From Scenedesmus sp. PABB004 (Eukaryota), in contig CM026547.1 in NCBI GenBank assembly GCA_014905635.1, positions 558,001-622,000 on the forward strand: a DNA stretch of 64,000 nucleotides. Reading direction: 5' to 3'. Below are positions 58,800-61,034 of this stretch, piece by piece. The number at the start of each line of letters is the position of its first letter. Position 1 is the stretch's first letter. A program made the translations under genes and the position numbers. The notes under the pieces are model-generated. The model did not search any database. It worked only from the letters and a program-made list of their open reading frames with translations, and was not told the origin of the DNA.

Positions 58800-61034
58800 A
58801 TGGCCGGCCCGCGTGCCCCGATGCTGGCGCTGGCGCTGCTGGCGCTGGCAGCGGGTGCAGCGGCGACCGCCTCCGGACCCCCCTGCGCGGCGGGCCTGCC
58901 CACGCTCGCCGTCGCGGCGGGCACCACGCCGCGCGCCGCCGCGCGCGCGGCCTACCCCGACGCGGCCGCACACGTGCCCTGGCGCGCGCTGTGCCTGCTG
59001 CTGCGGTCCTGCAACCCCGGGCTCGCCTGCAACAGCAAGCCCCTGGCTGCCGCCACGACGCTCGTCGTGCCGCCGCTGCCGGCGCCGACGCCCAAGCCCA
59101 AGACCGGCGCGCCGAACAACTACAACCCGGAGCCCGAGAGCACGGGCGAGCCCGTGATTGTCGTGGCGGCCGCCCCGGCCGCCCCGGAGGCGGCGACGGC
59201 CGCGGGGGCGGGCGTCGCGCAGACGGGCGCGTGCACGGTGTCGGTGGCGCCCACGGGCGTCATTCGCGCGGTCACCCTCTCAAACGCCTGCCCCATCTAT
59301 TTCAACGGCTGCAGCGGGCCGTCCGACATAGCAGCTTACCAGGCCAAGCTGACTCCCGCATGTACGAGTCACGACATGTGCTATTCCTGCGGTGAGCTGC
59401 ACAAAAAAGCGCTTGGCCCGCGCTGCGCCGCCGCGCCCCTCGCGGCCCCACACACCAGTCCCCGCCGCCGCGCGCGCGCAGTCTGGAAGGTCGCGACGCC
59501 CGGGCTGACCAAGGCACAGAAGCAGAAGGTGTGCGACGACCGCTTCCAGGTGCGCGCGCGCGCGCGGCGAGCCCCCCGCCGCCGCCGCCGCTGGCGCCCC
59601 GCCGCCGACGCCGTGCAGCCGCCGGGAGCGCCGCCGCCGACGCGCAGCCGCCGCCGGGAGCGCCGCCGCCGCCGACGCGCCGACGCCTGCCGCGCGCCAC
59701 AGACCAACCTCAACACGCTGTGCGACTTTTACTTCCTCCCCCGCGACGGCCGGCCGGGCAGCACGTTCCACCTCAACGCCTGCAAGGCCCAGGCGCGCGC
59801 GCGCACGCGCGCACGCGCGGCAAGCCCCCCTGCCGCCGCCGCTATCACCCCGCCGTGCAGCCGTGCAGCCGCCGAGAGCGCCGCCGCCGCCGCCTGCTGC
59901 GCGCCAGACGCTGGCGATGTACGGCGCCGTGCGGGCGTCGAGCGACTACTACAAGGAGGACGCGTGCCCCGGCCAGCTGGGCAACTTTGACATCGCCAAC
60001 CCGCAGTACGGCATCGTGCCGACCTACATCCCCAGTGCGCCCCAGCGCCGCGCCCGGGCGCGCGTCGCCGCGCCCGGGCGCGCGTCGCCGCGCCCGGGCG
60101 CGCCCTGACGGCTGCCGCCGCTGCTGCTGCTGCCCGCCGCACAGGCTTCCCCACCTACGCGATCATCGCCCCGCTCCGGCAGTGAGTGCCCGCCGCACCC
60201 GCCGCCCGCGCGCGCGCCGCGTGCACCCCCGCCGCCCTGCGCCGCCGCCGCTCACGCCCTCTCCCCCTCCGCCGCCCGCCGCCGCCCGCCGCCGCAGGGG
60301 CCCGTGGGGCTACTGGACGCCCTGGGCCGAGTGCGGGACGGGGTCTTGGCTCAGCGGCTTCCGGGCGCGCGTCGAGGCGATGCAGTACCTGGGCGATGAC
60401 ACCGCGCTCAACTCGCTCGAGTTCCGGTGCACCAATGCAGCGGGCACGGTGACCAAGACCAACGTGACCGCCCACGGCGGCTACTGGGGCGACTGGGGCG
60501 CGTGGAGCGACTGCCCGCTGGGCCAGCACATCGTGGGGCTCGACCTGGAGCTCCAGGACCCGGGCGGCGACGACACCGCCGCAAACACGCTCAAGGTGCG
60601 GCGCCGGCGCGCGGCGCGCGGCGCGCGGCGCCCACGCCGCCGCGGGGGCGCCCCCCCGCGCCCGCGCCCGACGCCCGCGGCCGACGCCCGCCGGCGCGGG
60701 GGCCGGCCGCCGCGCCAGGTGCGCTGCAGCGGCGGCGGTGACCTCACGCAGCCCAACACGCCCGGCTTTGGCTACTTCTCCGGCCGCATCGTGACCTGCC
60801 CCGATGGCATGGCCGCATGCGGCGTGCGCGTCAAGATGGAGAACGACGGCGTCGTCGGTGCGCCGCGCGCTGCGCGCTGCTGGCGCGCTGCTGGCGCGCG
60901 GCAGCGCCGCCGCCGCCGGCGCGCGCGCGCCCGCCGCCGGCGCGCGCCCGCCGCCGACCCGCCCGCCCGCCCGGCCGCGCGCAGACGACACCGCGATGAA
61001 CTCGGTCAACTTTGCCTGCTGCCCGAAGCCCTAG
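58800..61034 (+). CDS. Secreted LysM-like + phospholipase A2 + VOMI (beta-prism) fusion protein; multi-exon
   Basis: Signal peptide MAGPRAPMLALALLALAAGAAA; LysM-like LAVAAGTT..AA..LLRSCNPGLACNSKPLAAATTLVVP; PLA2 motifs NGCSGP..LTPACTSHDMCYSC..CDDRFQTNL..C..MYGAVR; VOMI triplet GPWGYW..C..GF..GDDTALN, GYWGDW..C..GDDTAAN, GFGYF..C..CG..DDTAMN..CC; stop 61034. Confidence 0.85.

Follow-up and report, generated by a model that had tools for sequence, protein, structure and literature searches.

Secreted phospholipases A2 (sPLA2s; PLA2 for the enzyme in general) of group XIV are single-domain proteins of about 120 residues. The solved set consists of TbSP1 of Tuber borchii (4AUP, whose Protein Data Bank (PDB) title reads 'group XIII'), the PLA2 of Streptomyces violaceoruber (1FAZ/1LWB) and the enzymes of Saccharothrix espanaensis (8K1W) and Sciscionella marina (7YGK). 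A His/Asp dyad and an Asp beside the His are named as the defining catalytic residues of the group (PMC11525133). VMO-I (VMO-1) of chicken is a stand-alone beta-prism of 163 residues made of three repeats, and it has a carbohydrate-accommodating cleft and showed antibacterial activity (PMC4904793). LysM domains (PF01476) have a beta-alpha-alpha-beta fold, as in a Volvox carteri chitinase (5K2L), a T. thermophilus NlpC/P60 protein (4UZ2) and E. coli MltD (1E0G). Here we describe a gene, found in a stretch of 64,000 nucleotides (contig CM026547.1, positions 558,001 to 622,000; hereafter the window), that is predicted to bring modules of these three kinds together in one protein. The gene lies at 58800..61034 on the plus strand, as do all features of the gene given below, and its predicted product begins with a signal peptide, followed by a LysM-fold module, a Pro/Ala linker, a Cys-rich His/Asp sPLA2 domain and a three-repeat VOMI prism. 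None of the modules is new in kind, but finding them combined is rare.

Sequence comparison indicates a genuine fusion of PLA2 to VOMI, which is rare and limited to a single small clade. On balance we think it probable that the product is a secreted, disulfide-rich modular enzyme, that is, a glycan-tethered group XIV-type PLA2 equipped with LysM-fold and VOMI modules.

The phospholipase A2 and VOMI domains

The PLA2 domain and its C-terminal extension occupy residues 144-305 (59229..60181; the end of exon 1 and exons 2-5) and contain 10 Cys. The closest named relative of the window protein is a protein of 1147 residues, P0001, whose C-terminal part is orthologous to it (see below). When the stretch of this orthologue covering the N-terminal module, the linker and the PLA2 domain was used in a HMMER search of a library of 1.84 billion representative proteins, 81 proteins were found at E≤1e-3, and every match fell on the PLA2 part. 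Sixty-eight of the 81 matched PF09056 and/or PF06951 (group XII) at E≤0.01 and 33 reached a curated cut-off; the 13 with no such match were mostly fragments ending at the HD motif. The profile of this family gave exactly four matches in the PDB, 8K1W, 4AUP, 1FAZ and 7YGK (E 3.8e-16 to 3e-12), all of group XIV type. In the alignment of the profile with the solved chains, HD, the second Asp and four Cys columns were in register; these four Cys, which form disulfides in the solved enzymes, are present in the window protein. The spliced window protein itself scored 89.9 bits over residues 147-266 against a profile of 71 relatives from outside the clade of VOMI fusions, relatives that had themselves been found through the orthologue.

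Three sites in the domain line up with the active-site elements of the solved enzymes. The NGCSGP loop at residues 169-174 (59304..59321) aligns with their D-x-C loop and is presumed to bind Ca. The C..HD.CY.C motif at residues 188-197 (59361..59390) aligns with their RHD and contains the catalytic His191 and the adjacent Asp192. The CDDRF motif at residues 215-219 (59532..59546) aligns with their I-D-x-x-F, and its Asp216 is the presumed second member of the dyad. Across the 82-row alignment G, C, C, H, D, C, Y, C, D, C and C are at least 90% conserved, and the window protein has all of them, His191, Asp192 and Asp216 included.

Structure comparison gave the same assignment. In the AlphaFold2 (AF2) model of the orthologue stretch, the PLA2 core had a predicted local distance difference test (pLDDT) score of 86-97. 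VIA-align, run with this model against 48,161 chains, placed the truffle PLA2 4AUP first (Z 9.3, root-mean-square deviation (rmsd) 2.6 Å, 89 aligned residues); the second-ranked match had Z 6.8. The top five Foldseek matches were all group XIV-type PLA2s at a probability of 0.98-1.00, later rows being at or below 0.20. The domain shares with the group XIV enzymes the helical core fold, the His/Asp dyad, the Asp beside the His, four aligned Cys columns and, by prediction, secretion, at 26-29% identity in the structural alignments. It differs from them by six further Cys (HD.CY.C and CD motifs), by an Asn for Asp where the loop begins, by a C-terminal extension of 40 residues and by the LysM-fold and VOMI modules that flank it. 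On these results we assign the PLA2 domain to group XIV, the fungal/bacterial family (PF09056), and within it to a branch rich in Cys, with six extra Cys and a group XII-like Cys pattern; it is not of the animal type.

Membership in group XII (PF06951, PLA2G12) had first been suggested by the Cys pattern of that group, which is similar around HD, and weak Pfam matches to it occur in the orthologue and in many relatives. With PF06951, whose cut-off is 34 bits, the orthologue stretch reached only 17.6 (E 0.0039); PF09056 was its better match, and all the solved matches are of group XIV. We therefore rejected group XII. As a side observation, the ESM Atlas neighbours of P0001 residues 815-971 (scores 0.80-0.79, to be taken as leads only) also carry PF09056 and PF06951. 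One ESM Atlas cluster of small PF09056-like proteins was 55% viral (Uroviricota; score 0.79, again a lead only), which hints that phages also carry this type of PLA2.

The VOMI beta-prism occupies residues 306-466 (60299..61031; exons 6-8), with three repeats and 8 Cys. Translation through the region 60299-60856 matched PF03762 at E 7.3e-25, with 88.4 bits against a cut-off of 25; profile positions 8-109 were covered by exon 6 and positions 117-150 by exon 7. Chicken VMO-I (1VMO) was matched at E 3.1e-18. A DDTA.N motif occurs in each of the three repeats, at residues 338, 396 and 451, and exon 8 completes the last repeat in agreement with the C-terminus of the relative P0002. The three-repeat beta-prism is common to both proteins, but VMO-I stands alone whereas the VOMI of the window protein is the C-terminal module of an enzyme.

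Residues 1-25 (58800..58874) read as a signal-peptide-like N-terminus, in which a brief basic stretch leads into a hydrophobic core of Ala and Leu, with small residues ahead of Gly26; hydrophobic leaders also open the relatives P0004 and P0016. Between the N-terminal module and the PLA2 domain lies a linker rich in Pro and Ala by composition (residues 96-143; 59085..59228), with 11 Pro and 13 Ala in 52 residues. It is poorly conserved relative to P0001, and its pLDDT was below 50 in the orthologue model. The number of Cys is even in each module, 4 in the LysM-fold module, 10 in PLA2 and 8 in VOMI. The protein is predicted to be secreted, and the even Cys counts fit an extracellular setting. 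The original prediction, made from the DNA letters and their open reading frames, had proposed a signal peptide, a Pro/Ala linker, a PLA2 with C..HD.CY and CD..F motifs and a complete three-repeat VOMI. A signal-peptide-like leader, the linker and the VOMI prism are present, and so are the PLA2 domain and both of its motifs; the type of the PLA2 is here corrected to group XIV.

The gene model and its relatives

The region 58800-61034 makes up one gene of 8 exons with 1401 nt of coding sequence, that is, 466 codons, 22 of them for Cys, plus a TAG stop at 61032-61034. Within its open frame, no ATG in frame precedes the start codon at 58800. Exons 1 to 4 are placed at 58800-59391, 59482-59549, 59703-59792 and 59908-60034, and exons 5 to 8 at 60145-60181, 60298-60595, 60719-60857 and 60985-61034. 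The model was built from the sequence; it is colinear with P0001, and the C-terminus of P0002 agrees with the junction of exons 7 and 8. The seven introns measure 90-153 nt, six being GT-AG and one GC-AG, and the reading frame is kept across all seven. The sole GC-AG intron is intron 3 (59793..59907, 115 nt), and its GC donor reproduces the exact residue spacing of P0001 and P0002. The GT donors at 59855 and 59863 were considered in its place and rejected, because they gave implausibly short introns and broke both the frame and the residue spacing of the relatives. At 61207..61211, 173 nt past the stop, there is a TGTAA, which we take to be a possible green-algal polyadenylation signal.

The base composition of the region shapes what can be read from it. 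The guanine-plus-cytosine (GC) content of the window is 72-81% throughout, and long open frames are present in all six frames; at this composition they carry little meaning. Within the gene, the introns have 78-96% GC and the coding sequence 71%, with 93% at third codon positions (GC3). Several introns of the gene, within 59392-60984, are free of stops in frame. Such stop-free, GC-rich introns make unspliced translations resemble long open reading frames and defeat word-based searches for homologues. Word-index searches with the unspliced N-terminal translation gave 0 of 8000 and 0 of 3 candidates, the sole close relative, with its 1147 residues, being beyond the length range searched. Searching the PDB with the sequence of exon 1 turned up nothing better than a chance match (E 8.4).

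When longer proteins were searched with the VOMI part, a single one was found, P0001, annotated as 'ERDJ2A [Scenedesmus sp. PABB004]' (1147 residues, E 2.7e-51). The spliced model is colinear with the C-terminal 437 residues of P0001 (688-1124), in the same module order and across the junctions from exon 1 to exon 7, with 269 of 453 positions identical (59%). The 37-nt exon 5, which joins PLA2 to VOMI, is almost identical in P0001, and the introns are not conserved. Ahead of this part, at residues 1 to about 690, P0001 has Sec63 and DnaJ domains, and its last residues are unlike exon 8. The Sec63/DnaJ sequence (the first 700 residues) has no counterpart in the window. The record of P0001 therefore probably merges two genes, and its last exon was probably called wrongly. 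We rejected its Sec63/DnaJ plus VOMI architecture as a real one, since the window is without such sequence, the gene has an ATG and a leader of its own, and a HEATR5/Laa1-like gene lies upstream on the other strand. From these comparisons we read the locus as one nuclear gene in a chlorophyte of very high GC content; the closest named relative of its product is P0001 of Scenedesmus sp. PABB004.

A second relative, P0002 (603 residues, E 1.9e-34), opens with a hydrophobic leader and contains a pair of LysM-like units, PLA2 and a complete VOMI (positions 5-167 of 167, E 3.4e-36). P0003 and P0005 are fragments in which PLA2 is also joined to VOMI. VOMI was found in 3 of the 81 relatives with a PLA2 domain, and the named Scenedesmus record P0001 is a fourth case. 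In a quick tree, built from few columns, the PLA2 domains fused to VOMI (those of the window protein, P0001, P0002, P0003 and P0005) formed one group, with a Shimodaira-Hasegawa-like approximate likelihood ratio test (SH-aLRT) value of 87. The placing of the PLA2 and VOMI parts on a single transcript draws on this conservation and on the continuous 603 residues of P0002, and we infer it from sequence. A literature search at the level of result listings found no published description of a PLA2-VOMI or LysM-PLA2-VOMI protein. The combination, which the original prediction had not recognised from any known protein, is rare rather than unknown among sequences, as four further ones contain the fusion. 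Scans of metagenomes for related loci, made with the family alignment and with P0005, gave none that could be confirmed.

Other relatives join the PLA2 domain to other partners, namely LysM plus TSP1 (LysM in 5 of 81, TSP1_spondin in 7 of 81), three PAN domains, or crystallin plus a ricin-B lectin. The LysM+TSP1+PLA2 proteins of other algae, for example KAG5177157.1 of Tribonema minus (P0024), have a PLA2 domain 34-41% identical to that of the orthologue and a Pfam-positive LysM ahead of it. They differ from the window protein in having a TSP1 repeat, in being without VOMI and in standing on a separate branch of the tree (SH-aLRT 96). We also noticed that P0002, P0004, P0010, P0016 and P0022 have a second, different Cys-containing unit (C-G-C-T ... 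Y-P ... C-N ... G-Q-x-L-x-G-I-C), which follows the LysM-fold unit and precedes the linker. Pfam does not recognise this unit, and it is missing from the window protein and from P0001.

The N-terminal module

The module between the leader and the linker (residues 26-95; 58875..59084) contains 4 Cys. Its assignment rests on an AF2 model and on fold searches, and we read it from these predicted structures as a LysM fold, probably that of a strongly diverged LysM. The AF2 model of residues 26-95, made from a dedicated alignment of 5 rows, had a mean pLDDT of 89.9 and a predicted template modelling (pTM) score of 0.76. It showed a strand-helix-helix-strand arrangement with elements at E10-12, H19-26, H36-46 and E62-64 of the module. 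In the orthologue model built on the 82-row alignment the same module had a pLDDT of 55-62, because that alignment was misaligned there.

The best VIA-align matches of the module model were LysM domains or LysM-bearing proteins, at Z 5.6-3.8 with an rmsd of 2.2-2.9 Å over 46-52 residues. They included a pyocin baseplate protein, Kbp, the LysM pair of T. thermophilus NlpC/P60, L,D-transpeptidases, SleL, the LysM of AtlA, the LysM of a Volvox chitinase, P2 gpX, a Zymoseptoria LysM effector, the LysM of MltD, and Ecp6. Unrelated folds appeared only at about Z 3 and below. Foldseek also named LysM entries.

Several results count against the assignment. Pfam gave no LysM match at E≤1 in the window, nor at E≤10 in the N-terminal modules of the window protein and five relatives. 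A jackhmmer search among 83 sequences reached only the module's own orthologues and no Pfam-positive LysM, and hhalign of the module with five Pfam-positive LysM segments gave a probability of 0.3%. The fold matches did not exceed Z 5.6, and the Foldseek matches all had E≥1.4; such scores are low in absolute terms and may reflect a common arrangement only, and the domain is small. The LysM+TSP1 PLA2s stand on a different branch and so give no proof that the N-terminal domain descends from LysM; these fusions are a recurrent design rather than evidence of common descent of the module. A further profile search of the PDB was uninformative on LysM, as its matches were dominated by the Sec63/DnaJ part of P0001. 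Compared with LysM domains of known structure, then, the module shares the predicted beta-alpha-alpha-beta fold and differs in showing no signal at the level of sequence, in its four Cys and in the long insert that separates helix 2 from strand 2. The LysM-like unit first read from the sequence is thus retained on structure only, from a confident predicted fold and the fold searches; hidden Markov model and profile searches did not back it.

Neighbouring genes and possible functions

The PLA2-VOMI gene stands by itself, with ordinary genes on either side. The minus strand upstream of it contains exons of a HEAT-repeat gene resembling HEATR5/Laa1/Sip1, with matches to PF20210 (E 7e-35; 50126-51916) and PF25808 (E 5e-6; 48118-48729). 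An open reading frame starting at 58101 on the minus strand may be the first exon of this gene; the two genes would then point away from each other, with about 700 bp between them. On the plus strand, downstream of the PLA2 gene, an open frame at 61623-62462 contains the start of a U-box (PF04564, E 8e-6) at its end, behind a polyglutamine and a poly-Ala/Gly tract, and is probably the next gene. Paralogues of any of the modules were not found elsewhere in the window.

In other proteins the folds of both the LysM-fold and the VOMI module bind glycans, and if the protein works as we favour, these two modules would keep it on a surface that bears glycans. From there its PLA2 domain, using Ca2+ as cofactor, would hydrolyse phospholipids of the neighbouring membrane at the sn-2 acyl ester and release lysophospholipid and free fatty acid. 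Catalytic activity, Ca dependence and glycan binding would all be expected of such a protein, and the surface it targets could be the wall of an attacker or the alga's own. By analogy, the fusions of related PLA2 domains to LysM plus TSP1, to PAN and to ricin-B/crystallin fit a design in which a binding module guides a lipase.

Beyond the N-terminal module, there are points that weigh against this reading. Pfam gave no PLA2 family at E≤1 in the unspliced translation of the window, and the orthologue stretch matched PF09056 at E 3.4e-6 with 28.0 bits, below the curated cut-off of 29.4. The PLA2 structure model is that of the orthologue rather than of the window protein, and its Foldseek matches to PLA2s had E values of 0.014-0.36, none of them at or below 0.001. 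The presumed Ca loop starts with Asn, where the solved group XIV enzymes have an Asp that is a Ca ligand; across the family Asn or Asp is usual at this position, with Asn in the majority. Finally, the transcript structure, the ligand, the substrate and the localisation are all predictions.

One use of such an enzyme would be defence, with the LysM-fold and VOMI modules recognising polymers of the N-acetylglucosamine type on bacteria, chytrids or other attackers and the PLA2 domain lysing their membranes or freeing toxic fatty acids. All the modules are present and the catalytic residues are intact, the LysM structures that match the model include chitin- and peptidoglycan-binding ones, chicken VMO-1 was antibacterial and has a carbohydrate cleft (PMC4904793), and fusions to lectin or adhesion modules occur among related PLA2 domains. 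Yet the N-terminal module is without recognisable LysM sequence signals, so that its ligand may differ, and the neighbouring HEATR5/Laa1-like and U-box genes are ordinary ones that form no defence-type cluster. We regard a defence effector as possible but doubtful. The 'glycan-targeted membrane-lytic defence enzyme' of the original prediction remains a reasonable reading, and the results would fit anchoring in the alga's own wall equally well.

An enzyme of the alga's own wall would use the binding modules and the Pro-rich linker to keep the PLA2 domain in the wall or matrix, for lipid remodelling, scavenging or signals, for example under nutrient stress or during the release of daughter cells. 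The closest solved relative is a fungal PLA2, that of Tuber borchii, which is wall-associated and induced by starvation, and the linker, rich in Pro and Ala, resembles spacers in the wall proteins of green algae. An orthologue of the gene is kept in a second alga (P0001), and the window holds no local paralogues. The same evidence, however, suits defence equally, and we regard a role in the alga's own wall as no less possible, and no less doubtful, than defence. A further idea is that of a dedicated extracellular 'guided lipase' of the green-algal lineage, in which two lectin-type modules recognise the wall glycans of chytrids, fungi or bacteria and deliver the PLA2 domain to the attacker's membrane; we think this rather unlikely.

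It is improbable, in our judgement, that the PLA2 domain is a catalytically dead scaffold whose fold has only a binding or structural part in a multivalent lectin or adhesin. Other PLA2 groups do include inactive homologues, and the Asn in place of the Asp of the solved enzymes, in a branch with six more Cys than the group XIV enzymes, would suit such a scaffold. However, the His, the adjacent Asp and the second Asp are retained and at least 90% conserved across 82 sequences, and Asn or Asp is normal at the loop position of the family, Asn being the commoner. Least credible, and very improbable, is an artefact of the gene model, in which PLA2 and VOMI would belong to separate genes or transcripts and be fused in appearance only: one intron does need a GC donor, and the record of the named orthologue is itself doubtful, being merged with a Sec63/DnaJ gene, but the frame is preserved through seven introns, exons 4 and 5, which link PLA2 to VOMI, are kept in P0001, P0002 has all the modules in one uninterrupted sequence, P0003 and P0005 also join PLA2 to VOMI, and exon 6 opens directly behind its acceptor site without an ATG or a leader of its own.

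The glycan-tethered PLA2 that we favour has consequences beyond this locus. Its N-terminal module suggests that a LysM fold is able to persist without a detectable sequence signal, and the gene illustrates how group XIV-type PLA2s of algae escape Pfam in unspliced, GC-rich DNA. The comparison also flags a probable merged gene model in the public annotation of Scenedesmus. If the enzyme is active, it would be a concrete candidate for the means by which a green alga attacks membranes, or remodels them, outside the cell, and an enzymatic partner for VOMI could reveal what VOMI binds. Should it prove to be a guided lipase directed at attackers, it would be a type of innate-immunity effector so far undescribed in algae, and the first case to give a VOMI domain a targeting role for an enzyme.

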